DNA from: a virus
Lineage: Duplodnaviria > Caudoviricetes
Reading direction: 5' to 3' (one strand)
Length of the DNA: 64,000 nucleotides
Virus record (IMG/VR): IMGVR_UViG_3300021368_000002
Position 1 is the first letter of the stretch. Each line of letters starts with the position of its first letter. Made by a program: the position numbers and the translations under genes. Shown here in pieces: positions 1 through 28,023 of the stretch. The notes below the pieces were generated by a model that had not been told where the DNA came from, made no database searches, and worked only from the letters and a program-made list of their open reading frames with translations.

Positions 1-645
1 AGTAATACAGTTTCTTGCTTCTGGCGAGAGACGTTTAAGTGCGTCTTTGATACCGGCTGGACCTTTGCGGCCTGATATGTGGACATTGCACTTGAAATCT
101 TGAAACTGCTTACCATAACCCATCCACCTCGCTACATCTATGTGGTATTCGAATTCTTCAATTGAACGCTCGACAATCTCGGGGTTGTCGCTTGCAAGTA
201 CAGTAAATTGGCCTGGGTGCATCGATAGTCGGACATCGAGGGCTCTTGCCGTTTCTCCGACTTTTGCGAATTCTCTAGCGGCGTAATCACGTACATCAGG
301 CAAGCGCCAATAATAACTCCACTCATGCTGGGTATAAACAGGAAGCACATCGCTACCCAATCGGACCATTCTAAGCTCTGGAGGAAGGCTTCCCACATAT
401 TCAATCAACCTCTTGTATGACGCAATGTTATGGACCATAATGTCCCATAAGCGTTCTTCAGCAACGTCACGTGTCTGCCTATTCAGCCACTGTACTGTTG
501 TGCTACGAGTATTTAGCGGACGTTGAATCTCCTCGAGCAATTTCTTTTTTTGTGTTTGATCAGGATCCATATATTTGCAAGCAAAGCCTATACGTTGTTG
601 CTGGGCTCGCAAATAATCACCTGCTGTAGTAAATTTTAAATCCAT
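1..645 (-). CDS. uvsE: UV-damage endonuclease UvsE/UvdE (runs off the window edge; missing from ORF track)
   Basis: Manual translation from ATG at 645: MDLKFTTAGDYLRAQQQRIGFACKY...MVRLGSDVLP...RLSMHPGQFTVLASDNPEIVERSIEEFEYH...; RIGFAC, RLGSD and SMHPGQF are UvsE motifs. Confidence 0.9.
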   Translation of the reverse strand, partial: MDLKFTTAGDYLRAQQQRIGFACKYMDPDQTQKKKLLEEIQRPLNTRSTTVQWLNRQTRDVAEERLWDIMVHNIASYKRLIEYVGSLPPELRMVRLGSDVLPVYTQHEWSYYWRLPDVRDYAAREFAKVGETARALDVRLSMHPGQFTVLASDNPEIVERSIEEFEYHIDVARWMGYGKQFQDFKCNVHISGRKGPAGIKDALKRLSPEARNCIT

Positions 646-12698: not shown

Positions 12699-12727
12699 AT
12701 TATAATAGGATCAGGACCGTTTGTCAA
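12699..12727 (-). promoter_or_regulatory. Consensus sigma70 promoter
   Basis: TTGACA-17 nt-TATAAT. Confidence 0.8.
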
Positions 12728-13185
12728 CCGTTATGTTCCTTGTATGTGCCAAAAACATGGTCCCATATTGGAAAAAATAAGCTGTAATTATTTTTCCAAT
12801 ACTTATGATGGACTAGATGTGTTTTTCCTGCACTAAACGGCCAAATGTCAAATTTTGGATTATGCTCGACCCATTCTTGTATAAAGCCTGTCCAAATCCA
12901 ATACCAAACAAAAATCCACCAATGTCCTGTGACAGCACAAAACGCAAGAGTAGGAATAACTTCTGTAACCCATAAGTCAGCTGTACTTCCCCAATCGTCG
13001 CTCCAGAGGAATATATTTTGCCACATCCATTGTGGTTGTCCTCCTAAAACATATTGATGATGCTGCCAATGTATATCTTTAAGGTATGGAGTTACATGGC
13101 ATATGCGGTGAACCCAATATAATAGACAAGTCCAAATAAAAAACATAATAGGGTATATAACTACTTCCATCTTGGATTGGTCCAT
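12724..13185 (-). CDS. Sterol desaturase / fatty-acid hydroxylase family membrane protein
   Basis: His boxes YWVHRICH, HWQHH, HLVHH and NYSLFFPIWDHVFGT. Confidence 0.8.
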   Translation of the reverse strand: MDQSKMEVVIYPIMFFIWTCLLYWVHRICHVTPYLKDIHWQHHQYVLGGQPQWMWQNIFLWSDDWGSTADLWVTEVIPTLAFCAVTGHWWIFVWYWIWTGFIQEWVEHNPKFDIWPFSAGKTHLVHHKYWKNNYSLFFPIWDHVFGTYKEHNG

Positions 13186-13808
13186 TCTTCTTTTAGTTCA
13201 GGTCTTGGTACAAACATCCTGTGTAGGTATTTATTTTCTATAATGTCAACGTACTCTGGTGTAGGATTACCAGTCCACGGTGCACCTATGCATAGAGTTA
13301 GTTTTTGTGTATCGCCAGGCTCTAGTCCGTGTGGATGACTGCCATCTAAAATATAGGTATCATAACAATCAGGCACGTATACCTTTTCGTATCTGCTGTT
13401 TATAAAATAAAGTCTATCTATTTCACCTGTTAAAGCAATTCTAAATTTGTGTTGCAATGTTCCTACTTCTTCAGCTTGGCTATCTAAATGTTCATTTAAT
13501 CCAAATCCAGGAGGTGTTTTTAGAATTGTAACTCTACCCTCAGGGCACATCCATTTGAATATTTTGTTTTCTAATATGTTTTGCAATGTAGGACACATTG
13601 CTCCTGCTTCTGTGTATATTAGCTCGCCCTTTGCTATATTATTTTTTAAGCCGCCACTGTTATATATAGGAAGCATATGACAGCCTCTAAAACTGTCGTA
13701 ATACCACATTTCGTTTGGCGTTGCTAACACTTCATTTGTAATTGTAATTTTTGTTTGGGCATTTATTCCTAAGTCAAATGCACAAAAGGTAATATCATTC
13801 AGTTGCAT
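13161..13808 (-). CDS. Asp/Asn beta-hydroxylase-like 2OG-Fe(II) oxygenase
   Basis: GLNEHLDS (HxD), HKFRIAL, LDGSHPHG cupin-type motifs. Confidence 0.6.
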   Translation of the reverse strand: MQLNDITFCAFDLGINAQTKITITNEVLATPNEMWYYDSFRGCHMLPIYNSGGLKNNIAKGELIYTEAGAMCPTLQNILENKIFKWMCPEGRVTILKTPPGFGLNEHLDSQAEEVGTLQHKFRIALTGEIDRLYFINSRYEKVYVPDCYDTYILDGSHPHGLEPGDTQKLTLCIGAPWTGNPTPEYVDIIENKYLHRMFVPRPELKEEWTNPRWK

Positions 13809-14157
13809 CTCTTGTAAAGTATCTTGTTTTTATATTTTCAGGTTTAAAAAAGGTGTTTACTAAGTCTATCACAGTCCTAGTGTCAAATGTTTTGCAAGAA
13901 AACACATCCATGTAAAAATTACCATCTTTATCACAAAAGTGACAGGTGATGTTACTAGTTTCAATAAGTTGTACTAGAGTGTAACCTGCTTTATCGGGAT
14001 CGTGTGTGGCAAAATGTTCTACAATTGGATCTCCATATGGAACCATATCTATTCGTTCAACTAAAGTATTGCTGAACTCTTTGATTGTATCACTATTTGT
14101 CACAGCATCCATGTCGCCTGCTTTGCAATCTAGTGTTAAGTGGTATCCCCAGCTCAT
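13795..14157 (-). CDS. speD: S-adenosylmethionine decarboxylase proenzyme
   Basis: GYHLTLD, GYTLVQLIET-SNITCHF (self-cleavage site), MDVFSCKTFD. Confidence 0.85.
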   Translation of the reverse strand: MSWGYHLTLDCKAGDMDAVTNSDTIKEFSNTLVERIDMVPYGDPIVEHFATHDPDKAGYTLVQLIETSNITCHFCDKDGNFYMDVFSCKTFDTRTVIDLVNTFFKPENIKTRYFTRDATE

Positions 14158-14178
14158 AATAATAATTATCCTTCCTTT

Positions 14179-15636
14179 TTAAACCGACATTAATTTTTGA
14201 TAGTATTCTTCTTTCTTTTTGTTCGTATCCATTCTAATACGTAGTCTTGTCTTTTCCCATGGTTCGTTGTTAAGTATATCAAAAACGTCAGGCAGACTAT
14301 ATCCTAGTCCTAATATTCGTCCTATAAATGTAGCACTTGCAAACTTCCGTTTATTAGCAATAAATGGATCGGCATTTATACTATCCATAATCTCCTTGCC
14401 TTGTGTTCTTGTCATTATAGGACTTTCCCATTCAAAAGTATCTTTATTAAAACTGTACCCGTACTTTTCAGGATCGTCACCCATTTTATTTCCTGCTCTC
14501 CCATCTTTTGATTCTTTTAGTGTCAAAAGATTTAGTTCGAATGCATCAATAGGACAATCTGGGTTTTTCAAATAATCTACCGTATCCATAATACTGCTTA
14601 CAGGTTCTTCAGGTAATCCTATTATAAAATTAGCAGATACTAAAACATCGTCCTTCCAGTACTCTTTACAATCTACAAGTATATCCTTAATCCTTCCTGC
14701 ATCCATTCCTTTACCTATTGCTTTACCTGCTAGTGGATGAAAAGTTTCAATTCCAAAAGCAAGTCCTATGGCACCGCTATCTTTTAACAAAGGAATCATT
14801 TGAGGATACCTGACTATCATATCTATCCTGCCATACGATGTATATTCGAAATTAAACGGCAATTTTTGTTTAACTCTTGCAAGTGCTTCTAGCTTTAGAA
14901 CGCTTTCGTTAACAAGCTCGTCAGCTAACATATACTGTGTTATGCCGTATCTTTCATAATTATACATAAGTTCTTCATAAAGAGTGTTTTCAGCTTTTGT
15001 CCAATCTCCTATTTTTTTGCCTATTAAATCAAAAAAGCAATATGAACATTTAAATATACATCCTCTAGCAAGTTCTAATGGTAATGCTTCGCCCGGAAGT
15101 ATTATGTCGTTATCTTGCCATACAATTTTACTAGTCGCAAATTCTTCTTGTGTGTAAAAATAATCATCACCGTTGATGTGTATTGTGTGTCTGCCTTTTT
15201 TACAAATTAAGTCATCCCCGTATTTTAAATGTTTAGCAAGGGCAACAGCAGCATGATCGCCTTTGTTAATTACAGCATAGTCTATATAAGGCCAATCACT
15301 TGCGTAATCTATCTGAGGGCCGCCTACTACAATTTTAACTTTTGGATTTATGCTCCTAGCATGGTCGATTAAATCGATTAAATGTTCTTCTAACAACCCC
15401 CATTCATTTTTATCCCTCCATCCAGTAAGTAATGTAACACTAATGCCTATAAAATATGTTTCTTCATTTACAAACTTATCAATTAATTTTTTTATTCTGT
15501 TATGTCCTAGAAATCTAATACTATCTATAACTTGTGTAGGAAAACCGTTTGCACGAAGCTCTGTAGCAACTTTATAAGTTCCTGCATATTTTCCATAACC
15601 TGGAGTTGTTCCAACATCAGTAAGTAATAATATCAT
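14179..15636 (-). CDS. B12-binding radical SAM protein
   Basis: RGCIFKCSYC (CxxxCxxC), N-terminal cobalamin-binding-like region with IVVGG, FGIETF, FIIGLPEE. Confidence 0.85.
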   Translation of the reverse strand: MILLLTDVGTTPGYGKYAGTYKVATELRANGFPTQVIDSIRFLGHNRIKKLIDKFVNEETYFIGISVTLLTGWRDKNEWGLLEEHLIDLIDHARSINPKVKIVVGGPQIDYASDWPYIDYAVINKGDHAAVALAKHLKYGDDLICKKGRHTIHINGDDYFYTQEEFATSKIVWQDNDIILPGEALPLELARGCIFKCSYCFFDLIGKKIGDWTKAENTLYEELMYNYERYGITQYMLADELVNESVLKLEALARVKQKLPFNFEYTSYGRIDMIVRYPQMIPLLKDSGAIGLAFGIETFHPLAGKAIGKGMDAGRIKDILVDCKEYWKDDVLVSANFIIGLPEEPVSSIMDTVDYLKNPDCPIDAFELNLLTLKESKDGRAGNKMGDDPEKYGYSFNKDTFEWESPIMTRTQGKEIMDSINADPFIANKRKFASATFIGRILGLGYSLPDVFDILNNEPWEKTRLRIRMDTNKKKEEYYQKLMSV

Positions 15637-16220
15637 AAGGCTTGAAGTAGGCTCCGAACTTGCTCAATTTTTAAACTAGGTATTGTAATATAAACAAAAA
15701 GTGTATATCCTTCGGATACCACACCATGTGGCTGTTCAGTATTCAATAGCACTGGCACATATTTAGTATGCCTATATGAAGTATTCCAGTTTTCGGAAGT
15801 AATATATTTTAATGTTTTATCTTTTGGTAGATAGTAATTTTTTGTGATAAATTCACTATCTGCATTATTTAGAGTAGGCCAGTATGTAATTCTGCGTGTA
15901 AAGTCTCCTTCAATAGGGATAGCTAGATTGCAATATCTTTGTAAATGTGCAGGCTTACCTGGTGCAGCATCTGTATGAATATTACACTCGTGGTCTGTAT
16001 CTATTACACTAAATTGAAAATTATCAAGTTTTATGTATTTTTTAATAATAGATTTAACTTTTGTTTTAAATTCAGCATTAGTAAATTTTAAAGGCAAGTC
16101 TAACTTTTTTTCATAAATTTCATCTCTATCAGTCTTTACAAATATGTCACTTTGGTAATTTAATTTGCTTAGTTCTTCAGCAAGAGGAGTTAATTCTGTC
16201 AAGGGATAATAATATAACAT
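15633..16220 (-). CDS. Hypothetical protein, possible cupin/2OG oxygenase
   Basis: IHTD and PVLLNTEQPHGV resemble an HxD...H facial triad. Confidence 0.45.
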   Translation of the reverse strand: MLYYYPLTELTPLAEELSKLNYQSDIFVKTDRDEIYEKKLDLPLKFTNAEFKTKVKSIIKKYIKLDNFQFSVIDTDHECNIHTDAAPGKPAHLQRYCNLAIPIEGDFTRRITYWPTLNNADSEFITKNYYLPKDKTLKYITSENWNTSYRHTKYVPVLLNTEQPHGVVSEGYTLFVYITIPSLKIEQVRSLLQAL

Positions 16221-16236
16221 ATGGTATTTAATAAAT

Positions 16237-16311
16237 TGGAGTTACGGGCCGGATTCGAACCGGCGTAAAACAGTTTTGCAGACTGTTGCATATCCTCTCT
16301 GCCACCGCAAC
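16237..16311 (-). tRNA. tRNA-Cys(GCA)
   Basis: GTTGCGG...ACAGT CTGCAAA ACTGT...GGTTCGAATCC...CCGTAAC T CCA; U73 discriminator. Confidence 0.95.
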
Positions 16312-16312
16312 A

Positions 16313-16389
16313 TGGTCGGGGATGCAGGATTCGAACCTGCGACCTCTCGCTCCCAAAGCGAGCGCACTACCAGACTGTGCTAATCCCCG
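16313..16389 (-). tRNA. tRNA-Pro(TGG)
   Basis: CGGGGAT...CTCGC TTTGGGA GCGAG...GGTTCGAATCC...ATCCCCG A CCA. Confidence 0.95.
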
Positions 16390-16463
16390 TGGCATCGGTG
16401 GACGGAGTCGAACCGCCGCTTTTGGTTTTGGAGACCAACGTGCTACCATAACACTTCACCGAC
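16390..16463 (-). tRNA. tRNA-Trp(CCA)
   Basis: GTCGGTG...TTGGT CTCCAAA ACCAA...GGTTCGACTCC...CACCGAT G CCA. Confidence 0.95.
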
Positions 16464-16497
16464 AAAAAAAGCCCCTAACAGTATTAGTGCTAGGGGC
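16464..16497 (-). terminator. Intrinsic terminator (attenuator 3:4 helix) abutting the tRNA-Trp 5' end
   Basis: GCCCCTAGCA-CTAATAC-TGTTAGGGGC followed by T7. Confidence 0.9.
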
Positions 16498-16529
16498 GTA
16501 TCTTAAATAACTTTTTTTATAAAGTCGTG

Positions 16530-16592
16530 TTAAGACATACCCCCTTTCGGTGGACACCACGGTAATACTTGTGTTGCGTTTGTCTTAATCAC
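16530..16592 (-). CDS. Putative attenuator leader peptide MIKTNATQVLPWCPPKGGMS
   Basis: GTG start with AAGGA SD upstream; codons 11-15 CCG TGG TGT CCA CCG; TAA stop lies within the antiterminator arm. Confidence 0.75.
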   Translation of the reverse strand: MIKTNATQVLPWCPPKGGMS

Positions 16593-16621
16593 GTATCTAT
16601 TCCTTCTGTTAGTATGTAATT

Positions 16622-16650
16622 ACTATACTACATTTATTTATGTTTGTCAA
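16622..16650 (-). promoter_or_regulatory. sigma70 promoter for the leader + tRNA-Trp/Pro/Cys unit
   Basis: TTGACA-17 nt-TATAGT. Confidence 0.85.
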
Positions 16651-16666
16651 CCTTTTTTGGTAACAG

Positions 16667-16756
16667 TGGCGGTGGGTCAGGGATTCGAACCCTGGAAAGG
16701 CTTTCACCTTTGCTGGTTTTCAAGACCAGTGCATTCAACCGCTCTGCCAACCCACC
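16667..16756 (-). tRNA. tRNA-Ser(TGA)
   Basis: CTGGT CTTGAAA ACCAG anticodon arm, long variable arm, encoded CCA. Confidence 0.95.
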
Positions 16757-16917
16757 TACTTTATTTTTTCAACTTCACTTCTAGCTTTTTGGCCACAGTG
16801 TGGACAGTGAAAGCTAAACCTTTCTATTGATATTTCTTCCATTGTTGCGTAGGTGAACCAGCCTTTGCATTTATTGCAAGTCAAATGCCAAATAGTTTCT
16901 TTGACGGCTGTGAACAT
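16756..16917 (-). CDS. 53-aa zinc-ribbon protein (missing from ORF track)
   Basis: MFTAVKETIWHLTCNKCKGWFTYATMEEISIERFSFHCPHCGQKARSEVEKIK; CxxC...CxxC; TAAATA motif upstream. Confidence 0.7.
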   Translation of the reverse strand: MFTAVKETIWHLTCNKCKGWFTYATMEEISIERFSFHCPHCGQKARSEVEKIK

Positions 16918-16925
16918 GAAAGTAT

Positions 16926-17333
16926 TTATTCATGTTCTCCTCCAGGATCGTTTGGATCAAGTGTCACCTTTTCACCATTTATCCACATATACTGTCGTGT
17001 GCGACTTACACTGTGATATCCAGGGCGCAAGTTAAAAAGTTTGTTAACCTTTTGAGGATTCTTATCTGCTGCATTTAGTGTTACCGCAGTGATAAAAACA
17101 CCTGTGATCAGTGCAATGTGAAATACGGCACTAATACCAAATGCCATTGTGCTACCAACCATTACAGCAAAAATGCCTGACCACATAAACGCTAAAACTT
17201 GGAACACCATATGTGCTACTCTTGGATCAAGTTTGCGTAGTGACGATCCTTCGATGGTCATTACACTATCCCATGCTTCTTTTAAACTTAAAATTGAATT
17301 TGCCCATCCAATGGGTCTTACTTGTTTTGTCAC
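16926..17333 (-). CDS. Hypothetical membrane protein
   Basis: Two hydrophobic segments; GGAG SD before GTG. Confidence 0.6.
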   Translation of the reverse strand: MTKQVRPIGWANSILSLKEAWDSVMTIEGSSLRKLDPRVAHMVFQVLAFMWSGIFAVMVGSTMAFGISAVFHIALITGVFITAVTLNAADKNPQKVNKLFNLRPGYHSVSRTRQYMWINGEKVTLDPNDPGGEHE

Positions 17334-17518
17334 GTCACTCTCCGTGTGTCTGTGTTGGTGCGCCTGGAGGGACTTGAACCCCCACGCCGTGAAGCACTAG
17401 AACCTAAATCTAGCGTGTCTACCAATTTCACCACAGGCGCTTTTCTTCTAACACGACAAATAGGGCAGAATCTTCCTTCCGGCAATTCGAAATTACATTC
17501 AGGACAGTTTTCTACCAT
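17330..17518 (-). CDS. Zn-ribbon ORF that reads through tRNA-Leu
   Basis: AGGAGG SD; MVENCPEC...FCPIC; no stop until after the tRNA. Confidence 0.5.
   Translation of the reverse strand: MVENCPECNFELPEGRFCPICRVRRKAPVVKLVDTLDLGSSASRRGGSSPSRRTNTDTRRVT
17356..17440 (-). tRNA. tRNA-Leu(TAG)
   Basis: CTAGA TTTAGGT TCTAG anticodon arm, variable arm, encoded CCA. Confidence 0.95.
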
Positions 17519-17534
17519 ATTTGCCTCCTTAAAA

Positions 17535-17610
17535 TGGTGCTGGTTGAGAGACTCGAACTCCCGACCTGAGGTTTACAAAACCCCTGCTCTACCAACTGAG
17601 CTAAACCAGC
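17535..17610 (-). tRNA. tRNA-Thr(TGT)
   Basis: GGGGT TTTGTAA ACCTC anticodon arm; AGTTCGAGTCT T-loop; encoded CCA. Confidence 0.95.
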
Positions 17611-17615
17611 GTGTG

Positions 17616-17813
17616 TTACTTAGTCAATTTAAAATAAATTGCCTCGTTATTTTGATTATCAAGAACAGTTAAAGCTGGAACGCCTGATGGCGTAGTTTTA
17701 CCTACATACTCCCAGCTATAGCCATCCTTGTATTGGCTTTCTGCTGTTCCGAAGAACTCTTGATGTTCCCACATAAACAGTGCGCCTACTAATGCTATAA
17801 CAAACATTTTCAC
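17616..17813 (-). CDS. Small exported hypothetical protein
   Basis: AGGAGG SD, GTG start, hydrophobic N-terminus. Confidence 0.6.
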   Translation of the reverse strand: MKMFVIALVGALFMWEHQEFFGTAESQYKDGYSWEYVGKTTPSGVPALTVLDNQNNEAIYFKLTK

Positions 17814-17824
17814 CTCCTAGTAGT

Positions 17825-17898
17825 TGGAGCGGGTAACGAGAATCGAACTCGTATCCTCAGCTTGGAAGGCTGCGATAATACCATTATACTATACCCGC
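17825..17898 (-). tRNA. tRNA-Gly(TCC)
   Basis: GCAGC CTTCCAA GCTG anticodon arm; encoded CCA. Confidence 0.95.
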
Positions 17899-17901
17899 AT
17901 C

Positions 17902-17990
17902 TGGCGGAGGGTGTGGGAGTCGAACCCACTCTACGCTTTACACGTAGTACGGATTAGCAATCCGCTGCATTACCGTCCTGCCCACCCTCC
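17902..17990 (-). tRNA. tRNA-Ser(GCT)
   Basis: CGGAT TGCTAA TCCG anticodon arm, long variable arm, encoded CCA. Confidence 0.95.
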
Positions 17991-17991
17991 T

Positions 17992-18489
17992 TTAATTAGC
18001 GTTAATACTCACACTAATTGGAATTTGATCTCCAACATTATATTTGTTATAAGTGTAACTGCGTCCTTGGATACCGTTCCAGCTATACCAAATTGTATAG
18101 TTTTTGATCTGTTGTGACTGCTCAGTAGTGAAGCGTTTTTCACAACGTTGTTCTTGTTTGTAACCTACGATAGCCTGGCGATTGTTCTTTTTATCAGCAG
18201 CTATCATGCCTCCTAGCACAGCACCTGCGGCTGCACCATTATCTTTGTTAGTGACACCTTTACCAATTAGTCCACCGATGATCATTCCGCCTAGCACATC
18301 TCCTGCACTAGCACCACCGCCAGCGTTTCCGTAAATTGGTACTTCTACATTATAACATTCTGTAGTCGGAATATTCTGAGTTACAGTTACCCAATTAGGA
18401 TCAACTCGTGTAATTTCGGCGTAACGTGTATCTGCTTGAGCGGTCGACGCTACTGCGCAAAAGGCTACACCAGCTAGTAACTTTTTCAT
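17992..18489 (-). CDS. Glycine-zipper 2TM exported protein (YcfJ-like)
   Basis: Signal peptide; GGMIIGGLIG...GAAAGAVLGG zipper; TTGACT-17-TATACT promoter upstream. Confidence 0.8.
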   Translation of the reverse strand: MKKLLAGVAFCAVASTAQADTRYAEITRVDPNWVTVTQNIPTTECYNVEVPIYGNAGGGASAGDVLGGMIIGGLIGKGVTNKDNGAAAGAVLGGMIAADKKNNRQAIVGYKQEQRCEKRFTTEQSQQIKNYTIWYSWNGIQGRSYTYNKYNVGDQIPISVSINAN

Positions 18490-18559
18490 TTTGTACTCCT
18501 ATTTTCTTACCTTATATTTATAGTATAGTATCACTTAATACAAAAGTCAAGAACTTTTT

Positions 18560-18913
18560 TTAATATTGTGCTTCCCATTCGCTTCCGCCATTTCCGTAAG
18601 GAATAACTTCCACTTTTTTCACACGATCATATCTAAAGCTTCTGAAACCTTTTGACTCGATTGCCCATACAGCAATAACCTTATCGGATATCTCACGAAC
18701 TTTCTTTTGTGTGATAGGATCATCTTTTTTAGCAGGTGGCAACATACTTTCGATTAAAGTACACGGCATTTTTCTTTCTTCACCGTTTAATTTGGTAAAG
18801 GTAACTTCTACCACTTCCTTCTTAAGAAGATTTACTAGTTCTTCTCGTGTCGGAATGCCTTTTAGTGTTGCTACGGTATCAGCTACCGTAGACGATTGTG
18901 TCTGCGAGTCCAT
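18560..18913 (-). CDS. DUF2693/WYL-like SH3-fold phage protein
   Basis: [19 protein letters not shown]...[13 protein letters not shown]. Confidence 0.7.
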
Positions 18914-19466
18914 ACTCTACTGCCTCCTCTGCGCTCATAAATGTGTCTCTATCCATATCTCTTTCAAAATCTTCGTAAGTCTTTCCTTTAGTGTTATGTT
19001 GCACATAAAGTTCGGTCAAACGTTTCTTCCAATATTGGATTTCACGATAACTAATTTCAATATCACTTGCCATCCCTCTTGCACCGCCACTTGGCTGATG
19101 AATCATATGACGAGCATTTGGTAACAGCATTCGCTTGCCTTCCTGTCCTGCTTGTGCTAGGAAACTACCCATTGAGCAAGCCTGTCCCATTACAATAGTG
19201 TGTACAGGTGATTTGATATATTGCATAGTATCATAAATGCCCATTCCAGATGTAATCACACCTCCAGGAGAATTTATATAAAACTTAATAGGTTTATCTG
19301 AGTTTTCTGCTTCTAAAAAAAGCATCTGTGCAATTACAATATTAGCACTATAATCCTCAACTGGACCATTAAGCATTACGATTCTATCTTTTAACAGACG
19401 ACTGTAAATATCATACGAACGTTCGCCGCGAGCTTCTTGCTCAACTACCATAGGTACTAATGGCAT
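18879..19466 (-). CDS. clpP: ATP-dependent Clp protease proteolytic subunit
   Basis: [46 protein letters not shown]. Confidence 0.95.
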
Positions 19467-25842: not shown

Positions 25843-25991
25843 GTAAATGGGATAAATGGCTTAGCAAACAAAATGATGCTACCCGTACATACTTTGAAAA
25901 TCGTATGGCAGAAGAAGCTCCTTTTATTTACACTTGTGTAGGTATTGGTTTCTTTTGGGGTTTTGTTATTGCTACTTTGTTGATGCTATAA
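25839..25991 (+). CDS. 50-aa membrane peptide (missing from ORF track)
   Basis: ATGA-coupled; MSKWDKWL...GIGFFWGFVIATLLML. Confidence 0.55.
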   Translation: MSKWDKWLSKQNDATRTYFENRMAEEAPFIYTCVGIGFFWGFVIATLLML

Positions 25992-28023
25992 ACACACCAT
26001 TCCAATCTTCAGGAAGATCTTGAGTTTTCATATACTCACAGCGTTCTATCCACATTTTATAGTAGCCCTCTAATTTATGATCAAAGTGTCCTTTAAGCAT
26101 ACGGCATTTTTCTATAGCATCGTCAAATCTTTGAGCTCGATAATCTTCATGCATTTGTGCGTGTTTCTTTTGGGCTGATGCCCATGCAGGCCCTACATCA
26201 TCTAATACAGTATAAATTGCAAGTCCTACACTTTTGCCCTTGACTTGTAAATCGTCTACTTTTAAGTAGAAGAAATCATCCTTAGTGGCTTCGTAAGTTG
26301 CCTCTCCAACTAAGAGTAAACATCCATACTCTTTGCATTTTGATTCAATACGTGCTGCTGTTGATACAGCATCTCCTAAGACATCATAGGAATGGCGCCT
26401 TGTAGAGCCCATTTCGCCAAGGTAACCCAAGCCAGTATTAATACCAGCACCCATGCCCACTGGCGGGCGGTTGTGTCTTTGTAATGCCACATTAAATTTC
26501 TCCACCGCTTTTAACATATCTAATCCGCATTGGACTGCGGTTTTAGGATGTTGAGGATCATCAATTGGTGCATTATGGATATGCATACTTGCATCACCTA
26601 TATACTTTATTACCATTCCGTCTGAATCAAGAATAGGTTGTGTAATAGCATCCATATAGCCGTTCATTATTTTTGTTAGTCCTTTAACATCGTCACCAAA
26701 GGATTCTCCTAAAGGCGTAAAGCCTCGTAAATCTGAAAATAGTATTGATACTTCTTTTTTCATTCCTTCTTTAATTAGTGCAGGATTCTCCTGTAACAAA
26801 CGTACCACAGTAGGAGATGCATATCCTGCAAATTGTTTTTTAATTGCTTGCTTTTGTATAAATTCAGAAACAAATCTATTAAAGACTGCATGAAGGCCTA
26901 CTAACAGCACAGTAGCTAATGGCATTGTTATATCTAACAAATATAGATAATTTATCCACGCATAATGTGCTGCATAAATCAATCCTCCCGCAAACACAAC
27001 TATTTTAATACCAACAAGCCAGTAAGGAGCAAATCGTGCAAGTAGCACAAGAGCTATGCCCAAGACTGCTGTTGTCATCAATTCTGCTAATAGTGCCCAG
27101 TAAGGACGTTCTATTTGATCGCCATCTAATACTGTTTGTAAAGTTACTGCTGCTGGAATATAGTTGTGTTGCGGTCCGGTCGGACTTGCGATTAAGCCTC
27201 CAATGCCTTCTGCTGTTACGCCTACTATCACTGTTTTGCCTTCTACGATACTAAAATCATCCTCCGCTGAGCTCACACTAGGAAATTCTTTATTCCAGCG
27301 TAGCCATATTTGTCCGTTAGGATCGGTCCTAACGATTGGATAACCTGGCACCCTTACAGCTTCAACGCCTCCTTCATTAGCCTTAATTTGATAGGATGGA
27401 GCACCAGTAGCAACTCGTATAACTTCAACTGCTACAGCAGGATACGTATCTTCCCCAATACGCATTAGGAGCGGCACTCTACGCACTACACCGTCGATTT
27501 CTGGAAAAGTGTTAAGCACACCTACACCGTCGGCATTATCTCCTAGCAGTTGTATAGGTCCCAGCATCCCTGGCCATTCAAATAAGAACGGAATAGGATC
27601 ACCTATCTTCGCAACTCCACGCGGCACTGGGTTGCGGCTTACACCGGATGTAGTTCCCGTTTGGGCAATAACCACACCGTTTCCTACAAGTGCTTCGGCT
27701 AATGTCATATCTCCGCCGAGCCTATCTGGTTCCGAGAATAACATAGGCATTACAATAATGCCAGCACCTGCTTCACGAAGCTTCCAAACTATGTCTGCAA
27801 GAACATCACGCTTCCAGGGCCATTGACCATACTTTTCAATAGCTGTTTCGTCGATGGTGACTACTGCAATATCCTGGGATAATATCACCTCATCTTGTGC
27901 TTGGAGTAGATCAAACTGCTTGAGGCGAGCTGTTTGGACAATGGTACCATCCCCATAGTGTATGAGTATCATAACTATAGCTGTAATAAATGCTAATGTC
28001 CAATGTGTGATCCACTTTGTCAT
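25972..28023 (-). CDS. CHASE2-domain class III adenylate/guanylate cyclase
   Basis: N-terminal TM, CHASE2 (IAVVTIDETAIEKYGQWPW, DGVVRRVPL), 3 TMs, FSDLRGFT, KYIGDA, GDAVSTAARIE. Confidence 0.92.
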   Translation of the reverse strand: MTKWITHWTLAFITAIVMILIHYGDGTIVQTARLKQFDLLQAQDEVILSQDIAVVTIDETAIEKYGQWPWKRDVLADIVWKLREAGAGIIVMPMLFSEPDRLGGDMTLAEALVGNGVVIAQTGTTSGVSRNPVPRGVAKIGDPIPFLFEWPGMLGPIQLLGDNADGVGVLNTFPEIDGVVRRVPLLMRIGEDTYPAVAVEVIRVATGAPSYQIKANEGGVEAVRVPGYPIVRTDPNGQIWLRWNKEFPSVSSAEDDFSIVEGKTVIVGVTAEGIGGLIASPTGPQHNYIPAAVTLQTVLDGDQIERPYWALLAELMTTAVLGIALVLLARFAPYWLVGIKIVVFAGGLIYAAHYAWINYLYLLDITMPLATVLLVGLHAVFNRFVSEFIQKQAIKKQFAGYASPTVVRLLQENPALIKEGMKKEVSILFSDLRGFTPLGESFGDDVKGLTKIMNGYMDAITQPILDSDGMVIKYIGDASMHIHNAPIDDPQHPKTAVQCGLDMLKAVEKFNVALQRHNRPPVGMGAGINTGLGYLGEMGSTRRHSYDVLGDAVSTAARIESKCKEYGCLLLVGEATYEATKDDFFYLKVDDLQVKGKSVGLAIYTVLDDVGPAWASAQKKHAQMHEDYRAQRFDDAIEKCRMLKGHFDHKLEGYYKMWIERCEYMKTQDLPEDWNGVFIASTK

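Follow-up and report, generated by a model that had tools for sequence, protein, structure and literature searches.

A putative leader-peptide attenuator ahead of a tRNA-Trp-led tRNA cluster in an uncultured marine jumbo phage

Introduction

It remains a matter of debate why phages carry transfer RNA (tRNA) genes and what controls them. Codon-usage compensation, the replacement of tRNAs lost on host shut-down and escape from tRNA-cutting defences are the explanations usually offered. A stretch of 64,000 nucleotides (nt) of the viral record IMGVR_UViG_3300021368_000002, hereafter 'the window', comes from an uncultured marine jumbo myophage and poses the question of control in a specific form: what are a 20-codon open reading frame (ORF) and a transcription terminator doing between a strong promoter and the genes for tRNA-Trp, tRNA-Pro and tRNA-Cys (positions 16237-16650)? 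An earlier note, made from the letters of the window alone, had suggested that the short ORF is the leader peptide of an attenuator whose codons match the tRNAs encoded behind it. Having followed this suggestion through a family of related loci, we consider it likely, from the comparison of their sequences, that the module is a ribosome-mediated (leader-peptide) transcription attenuator gating a phage tRNA cluster led by tRNA-Trp. Its most likely role would be to let the phage make Trp, Pro and Cys tRNAs only when ribosomes run short of them.

Results

Architecture of the module

All window features described here lie on the minus strand. The module opens with a sigma70-type promoter (16622-16650; -35 box TTGACA at 16650-16645, 17-nt spacer, -10 box TATAGT at 16627-16622), which has 11 of 12 consensus matches, is the best promoter-like site in 14000-19000, and is expected to start transcription at about 16615. 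Directly after it, and before the genes that would be controlled, stands a short ORF with a ribosome-binding site: the Shine-Dalgarno (SD) sequence AAGGAAT (16599-16605) lies 6 nt 5' of the GTG codon (16592) of the leader ORF MIKTNATQVLPWCPPKGGMS (16530-16592), which comprises 20 codons and a TAA stop (16532-16530). Codons 11-15, CCG TGG TGT CCA CCG (Pro Trp Cys Pro Pro; 16548-16562), are the candidate sensed codons.

These codons lie unpaired between two segments that can form a helix with each other, namely segment 1, ACGUGAUUAAGACA (16581-16594), which contains the start codon, and segment 2, AGGGGGUAUGUCUUAACACG (16526-16545), which contains the stop codon. Segment 2 has a second potential partner in segment 3, UUAAGAUACGCCCCU (16492-16506), the 3' half of which is the 5' arm of the terminator. 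The helix 1:2 would act as protector and the helix 2:3 as antiterminator, the tip of which is an apical stem, GACUUU/AAAGUU (16509-16526), that is also possible in the terminated state. Segments 3 and 4 form the intrinsic terminator between leader and tRNA genes (16464-16497), with a stem of 10 pairs, six of them G-C (16497-16471), a 7-nt loop and a tract of seven U residues (16470-16464); it is the sole minus-strand terminator-like site in 14000-19000. The U-tract abuts tRNA-Trp(CCA) (16390-16463), which begins directly after it and is followed by tRNA-Pro(UGG) (16313-16389) and tRNA-Cys(GCA) (16237-16311). Every element that the earlier note had listed, from the promoter, SD sequence, GTG ORF and codon run to the 10-base-pair terminator with its U7 tract and the three tRNA genes, is thus found where it had been placed, and the five other tRNAs of the cluster do lie outside the unit, upstream of the promoter.

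The leader RNA of the window folds into helix 1:2 plus the terminator at -40.4 kcal/mol (z -3.95 against shuffled sequences). For the alternative state only the RNA downstream of the ribosome was folded; masking in RNAfold was dropped, as pairs across the ribosome remained possible. The claimed pairing of segments 2 and 3 was recovered in this way as a hairpin that includes the apical stem and extends from segment 2 as far as the terminator's 5' arm, with a predicted energy of -21.6 kcal/mol as against -17.5 kcal/mol for the terminator.

A family of leaders ahead of tRNA-Trp

Homologues of a 135-residue protein encoded upstream of the promoter led, before any pattern search, to three relatives with a recognisable leader. 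The family was then collected with three DNA patterns: one was applied to viral contigs, a relaxed version of it to metagenomes of the Joint Genome Institute (JGI), and a third, which described the terminator only and left the leader unconstrained, again to viral contigs. As a family probe in viral contigs, the exact 15-mer of the codon run was rejected, as it gave 120 unrelated loci that were random matches only. The resulting family comprises 91 loci on contigs of uncultured marine phages; among them are 62 different leaders and 58 different ORFs.

The architecture of the window recurs throughout this collection. A TTGAC -35 box is present in all 62 distinct leaders, of which 54 fit TTGACN-16..18-TAnnnT, and the conservation of ORF and terminator is complete: each of the 62 has an in-frame ORF of 17-22 codons and a terminator. 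The SD sequence AAGGAAT is invariant in alignment A3 (44 sequences) and divergent in some members found later. In all 89 cases where the flank is long enough, tRNA-Trp is the gene that comes first behind the terminator; ARAGORN missed one of these 89 genes, which Rfam and its CCA anticodon confirm. Depending on the locus, the promoter is preceded by a tRNA, a zinc-ribbon ORF, the gene for the 135-residue protein or still others, which marks the module as a self-contained cassette.

Some members carry an insert of 75-96 nt between terminator and tRNA-Trp (positions 1221-1297 of L129; similar in L219, L228, L247, L248, L263, L289, L299, L350 and L387). The L129 insert folds as a long hairpin with a 12-base-pair stem followed by UUUU (-24.2 kcal/mol, z -3.6), and might serve as a second terminator or as a site of processing.

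Leader codons follow the downstream tRNA genes

The co-variation between leader codons and downstream tRNA set that the earlier note had named as a check is present in the family. We compared 67 distinct combinations of leader and tRNA set, of which 56 have 700 nt or more of downstream sequence, and counted as the match score the number of leader codons cognate to tRNAs encoded downstream. The observed score was 227, against 155.8 +/- 8.5 when the tRNA sets were permuted (p<5e-5) and 179.5 +/- 6.4 when they were permuted within leader types (p<5e-5); over the full and the smaller set, the association has an overall z of 7.5-8.4. It holds despite recombination between leader types, which is frequent, judging from a flank tree that mixes those types. 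In phylogenetically independent pairs whose members differ in a tRNA, drawn on a tree built from the flanks only and summed over tRNA types, about 17 comparisons go in the expected direction and fewer than one in the opposite direction.

Several tRNA types contribute. A Cys codon occurs at 45/45 loci with tRNA-Cys and at 11/16 without it (Fisher 7e-4), and the five entries that have no Cys codon (four distinct ORFs, reading RWPP, GWPS, YWYP and NWPP around Trp) all lack tRNA-Cys. The ATA codon is found at 9/9 loci with tRNA(UAU) and 9/47 without (Fisher 6e-6), TCN codons at 17/17 loci with tRNA-Ser(UGA) and 21/42 without (Fisher 1e-4), and a Gln codon at 11/11 loci with tRNA-Gln and 28/45 without (Fisher 0.011). 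A Pro codon is present at all loci, 42/42 with tRNA-Pro and 21/21 without, and its association is not significant. Cys codons track tRNA-Cys, and the Trp codon, like the leading position of tRNA-Trp, is invariant; Pro codons do not track tRNA-Pro. The leader codons do match the tRNAs of the genes behind them, in the window as across the family, although Pro taken by itself is uninformative.

The excess of cognate codons is confined to positions -8 to +4 around Trp, that is, to the unpaired stretch between segments 1 and 2, and there is none at the outermost ORF codons (-11 to -9 and +5 to +8). Comparisons of individual members illustrate the changes. From L212 to L215, a single codon changes from CCA to TCA, with tRNA-Ser and tRNA-Gln inserted; from the window type to L244, GTA becomes TCA and CCG becomes TCG, with tRNA-Ser; and from L211 to L230 and L271, three ATA codons are gained together with tRNA(UAU). 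Between L264 and L248, TGT is replaced by CGT (Cys to Arg) and TCA by GAA (Ser to Glu), and the tRNA set gains tRNA-Arg(ACG) and tRNA-Glu and loses tRNA-Ser. The leader of L324 has the core PIYWYPI ahead of tRNAs for Trp, Ile, Tyr and Pro and none for Cys, and that of L306 reads SIIGWPS ahead of tRNAs for Trp, Pro, Gly, Ser, Met and Ile.

The tRNA(UAU) tracked by the ATA codons is 91-94 nt long (positions 1625-1718 of L129; also in L130, L230, L271, L306, L324, L355 and L359). In the ARAGORN drawing it has an extra arm of about 22 nt that is unpaired, and with the Rfam tRNA model it scores 58 bits.

Signature of a translated frame

Among the 62 leaders, 46 start with GTG and 16 with ATG, and 47 stop with TAA and 15 with TGA. 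Both ends of the ORF are fixed by RNA pairing, yet the length classes of the 58 ORFs differ by whole codons only. Where UUAAGAC/GUCUUAA is replaced by UCAAGAC/GUCUUGA in helix 1:2, the pair is kept and UAA becomes UGA, so that a stop codon is retained. Cys codons (TGT/TGC) and Pro codons (CCA/CCG/CCT) vary synonymously, and a Trp codon stands at codon 11-13 in 58/58 ORFs, 10-22 nt before the GGGG of segment 2. The whole-codon length classes, the stop-keeping change and the synonymous variation together give the leader the signature, though not the proof, of a translated frame, and it is from this signature that we infer translation.

Three mutually exclusive helices

The earlier note had described a layout of mutually exclusive helices, 1:2, 2:3 and 3:4, and folding recovers all three across the family, with mean energies over the 62 leaders of -19.7, -20.6 and -18.4 kcal/mol, respectively. 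The protector helix 1:2, which would sequester segment 2 when no ribosome stalls, is paired in 89% of cells scored, compared with 26-55% in slid controls. The antiterminator, built computationally from the segment at the end of the ORF and the 5' arm of the terminator, has 15 pairs with one mismatch and is paired in 88.6% of cells (28-56% in slid controls). In truncated transcripts, segment 2 pairs with the terminator arm in 62/62 cases, at a mean of -20.6 kcal/mol as against -13.1 kcal/mol with a shuffled spacer, and the antiterminator is more stable than the terminator in 55/62 leaders.

The compensatory changes that the note had called for were found in two of the helices. Helix 1:2 has two such pair changes, GUG/CRCG to AUG/CRUG and the UUAAGAC/GUCUUAA change described above, and the upper stem of the terminator shows compensatory C-G to U-A and G-U changes. 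The variable positions of helix 2:3 keep their pairing through single-sided changes, with C replacing U opposite G, and G replacing A opposite U. Both GGGG and RCGACUUU of segment 2 are invariant although the search patterns did not demand them, and the GACTTT of the apical stem is invariant in alignment A3.

Genomic neighbourhood and relatives of the window

Directly 3' of tRNA-Cys, with no terminator between, follow the genes for five proteins (12724-16220): a 195-residue protein of no recognised family, a B12-binding radical-SAM enzyme, an S-adenosylmethionine (AdoMet) decarboxylase, a 215-residue protein of unknown function and a fatty-acid-hydroxylase-like protein. Their co-transcription with the tRNAs is possible upon read-through, which, with no terminator 3' of tRNA-Cys, probably extends into the 195-residue ORF and the genes for the radical-SAM enzyme, the AdoMet decarboxylase and the hydroxylase. 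The 195-residue protein has no relative in viral contigs; distant homologues occur elsewhere, in other contexts and without tRNAs, and four metagenome contigs that encode an identical protein show 100% identity throughout the region and add no information.

On the other side of the promoter, the 135-residue protein (16926-17333) has an invariant C-terminal motif, DPGGEHE, and no Pfam match; its 422 homologues in marine metagenomes are usually encoded beside phage tRNA or transfer-messenger RNA genes. A small zinc-ribbon-like ORF next to it (17330-17518), which has the strong SD sequence AAGGAGG and starts MVENCPECNFELPEGRFCPICRV, has no stop before tRNA-Leu (17440-17356), so that its frame crosses the entire tRNA gene.

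A protein of the window is also present on a contig of 303,728 base pairs. The window further encodes a 683-residue protein (25972-28023) that shares 66% identity with a Methylophilales phage Melnitz protein, annotated with an adenylate/guanylate cyclase catalytic domain, and 47% with the cyclase of Pelagibacter phage HTVC008M; the Melnitz match, as a protein comparison, places the phage near the Melnitz/HTVC008M group. No near relative of the window was found among cultured phages. In that collection, a blastn search with the region matched tRNAs only, a blastn search with the leader alone gave no match, so that no isolate there has the leader family, and a tblastn search with the radical-SAM neighbour returned nothing. 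A search of viral contigs for the exact junction of the Trp and Pro tRNAs gave no match.

Discussion

How the switch would work

Our data are consistent with a model in which host RNA polymerase initiates at the strong promoter, with a ribosome engaging the nascent 20-codon leader. With fast decoding, the ribosome would reach the stop codon within segment 2 and cover that segment; with no ribosome loaded, segment 1 would capture segment 2. Under either condition the 3:4 terminator would form, and the RNA would end at about 16464-16470, just before tRNA-Trp. If charged tRNA were scarce, the ribosome would stall at the Trp codon or its neighbours and hold segment 1 apart from segment 2, and the freed segment 2 would take the emerging segment 3 (at about -21 kcal/mol) before segment 4 is made. 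With the antiterminator formed, polymerase would continue into tRNA-Trp, tRNA-Pro, tRNA-Cys and probably the downstream genes. The new tRNAs would then relieve the stall and shut the unit off, amounting to negative feedback on tRNA supply. As helix 1:2 hides the start codon, only co-transcriptional translation would count. The step from stalling to read-through, like the physiological trigger, is one that we infer, and a link to anticodon-nuclease defence is pure speculation.

The gains and losses of tRNA genes in the family suggest a further property of the leader. We lean towards seeing the ORF as an evolvable codon test strip: when tRNA genes are gained or lost, selection would rewrite the codons around the fixed Trp, and the transcription of the cluster would thereby be fed back on the decoding speed of its own tRNAs.

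Points that weigh against attenuation

A number of observations count against this interpretation or narrow it, and some concern the design of the leader. Segment 1 spans the start codon, unlike in trpL, and for this reason the blocking of helix 1:2 by a stalled ribosome is a steric argument only. There is a single Trp codon, where the regulatory codons of classical leaders come in runs. All leaders have one or more Pro codons after Trp regardless of tRNA-Pro, which leaves Pro without support as a sensed codon.

Others concern the strength of the comparative evidence. Helix 2:3 varies by single-sided changes and has no double compensatory change, because segment 2 is nearly invariant, and that invariance is itself partly by design, since two of the three search patterns required segment 2. 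The permutation p-values are optimistic, as the loci are related and their independence is overstated, and the independent-pair sign tests per tRNA type reach only about 0.06. The match between codons and tRNAs also has exceptions: an identical NWCSPS leader occurs both with and without tRNA-Ser (L229, L231, L269, L252), L278 retains three ATA codons without tRNA(UAU), and L355 has a Cys codon without tRNA-Cys. Judging from such identical leaders with different tRNA sets, the turnover of tRNA genes seems to outpace the adaptation of the leader. Lastly, metatranscriptome contigs cover tRNA sequences only, and many come from other organisms; two of them extend from tRNA-Pro through tRNA-Trp to 16478, and the contigs are silent on a 3' end at the terminator.

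Other explanations of the leader

The same parts could belong to a stand-alone small gene, producing a stable RNA of about 150 nt or a 20-residue peptide with a Trp-Cys/Pro motif, either having its own function, with the tRNAs transcribed by constitutive leakage through the terminator and the codon match incidental. With its 5' hairpin, A/U-rich linker and terminator hairpin, the leader does have the shape of a typical bacterial small RNA, and it gives a weak Spot 42-like match of 23.7 bits, far under the gathering score of 80 bits. Ribonuclease P cutting at tRNA-Trp would free the same leader RNA even after read-through, and the Trp with an adjacent Cys or Pro is kept as a peptide motif would be. 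We nevertheless regard a stand-alone gene as unlikely. It leaves unexplained why leader codons change with the tRNA genes, and do so only in the unpaired stretch around Trp; the position of Cys flips between members (PWC, CWP, CWC, NWC, YWY), unlike a structural motif; and a conserved strong terminator between a strong promoter and promoterless tRNA genes, together with an equally strong competing helix, looks more like a switch than a leak.

Two further readings keep a switch and change what it senses. The nascent peptide or an elongation factor might be read, either through an mgtL-like arrest at Trp-x-Pro-Pro that depends on elongation factor P (EF-P) or through TnaC-like sensing of free tryptophan, in which case the same switch would report proline, EF-P or tryptophan. 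The invariant Trp at codon 11-13 would suit such a sensor, as would the Pro that follows it in all leaders, with or without an encoded tRNA-Pro, and Pro-Pro motifs are known pause sites. A fixed arrest motif, however, cannot explain the co-varying Cys, Ile-ATA, Ser-TCN, Tyr, Glu and Arg codons; many leaders have a single Pro (WCSPS, WCQPL, WPL), so that Pro-Pro is not conserved; and TnaC works at its stop codon via Rho rather than an intrinsic terminator. A Pro after the regulatory run is usual in the classical leaders hisL, pheL and ilvL, and may only tune dwell time. On balance we find a peptide or EF-P sensor distinctly improbable. Still further from the evidence is a switch made of RNA only, in which tRNA anticodons pair with the exposed codon run, as with the specifier of a T-box, and no translation takes place. 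The codon run does belong to a loop that is left unpaired, with codons matching the tRNAs, but neither a T-box nor any other Rfam family matches the leader, the SD sequence, start codon, in-frame length classes and kept stop codon all indicate translation, and we know of no T-box with several adjacent specifier codons in a run; we give this possibility hardly any weight.

Significance and relation to known attenuators

If the ribosome-mediated attenuator is real, phage tRNA supply would be demand-driven, switched on only when the matching codons are read slowly, and the leaders would offer a direct read-out of which tRNAs are limiting for the phage in its host. Classical attenuation would be extended from amino-acid genes to the molecules of decoding themselves. 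The family also displays a regulatory sequence that tracks gene gain and loss across close relatives. At about 190 nt, the module is compact enough for easy testing in reporters and is possibly useful as a sensor of tRNA availability.

Full-text searches of the literature for leader-peptide attenuation of tRNA genes found no description. The Rfam leader families (Trp_leader, His_leader, Thr_leader, Leu_leader and others), searched over 16100-18200 at E values up to 5, gave only tRNAs and sub-threshold noise. Over the same interval Rfam gave no match to T-box features, and the leader is only about 150 nt long, with a conserved ORF.

The closest parallels in design are the amino-acid leaders trpL of Escherichia coli, hisL, pheL and leuL. 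Like them, the phage module has a promoter-proximal short ORF with an SD sequence and an intrinsic terminator before the controlled genes, and it shares with trpL-type leaders regulatory codons that precede segment 2 by 10-22 nt, three exclusive helices (1:2, 2:3 and 3:4) and a Pro after the regulatory codons. It differs from the trpL type in controlling tRNA genes rather than biosynthetic enzymes, and would therefore sense its own product. In addition, its segment 1 covers the start codon and not the regulatory codons, it has one Trp codon with mixed neighbours instead of a homopolymer run, and it is phage-borne, with no relationship in sequence or in Rfam.

The pheST attenuator and the T-box follow the same logic, in that both answer scarcity of charged tRNA with terminator read-through, which increases the expression of a component of decoding. 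The pheST attenuator controls a synthetase, and the T-box reads uncharged tRNA directly by means of a conserved Stem I and T-box sequence that are absent from the phage leader. The multivalent attenuators of thr (Thr/Ile) and ilvGMEDA (Ile/Val/Leu) resemble the phage module in another respect, since in each of them one leader reports on several amino acids or tRNAs. In the phage family, by contrast, the targets are the tRNAs themselves, and even close relatives differ in their codon mix, which is rewritten as tRNA genes are gained and lost.

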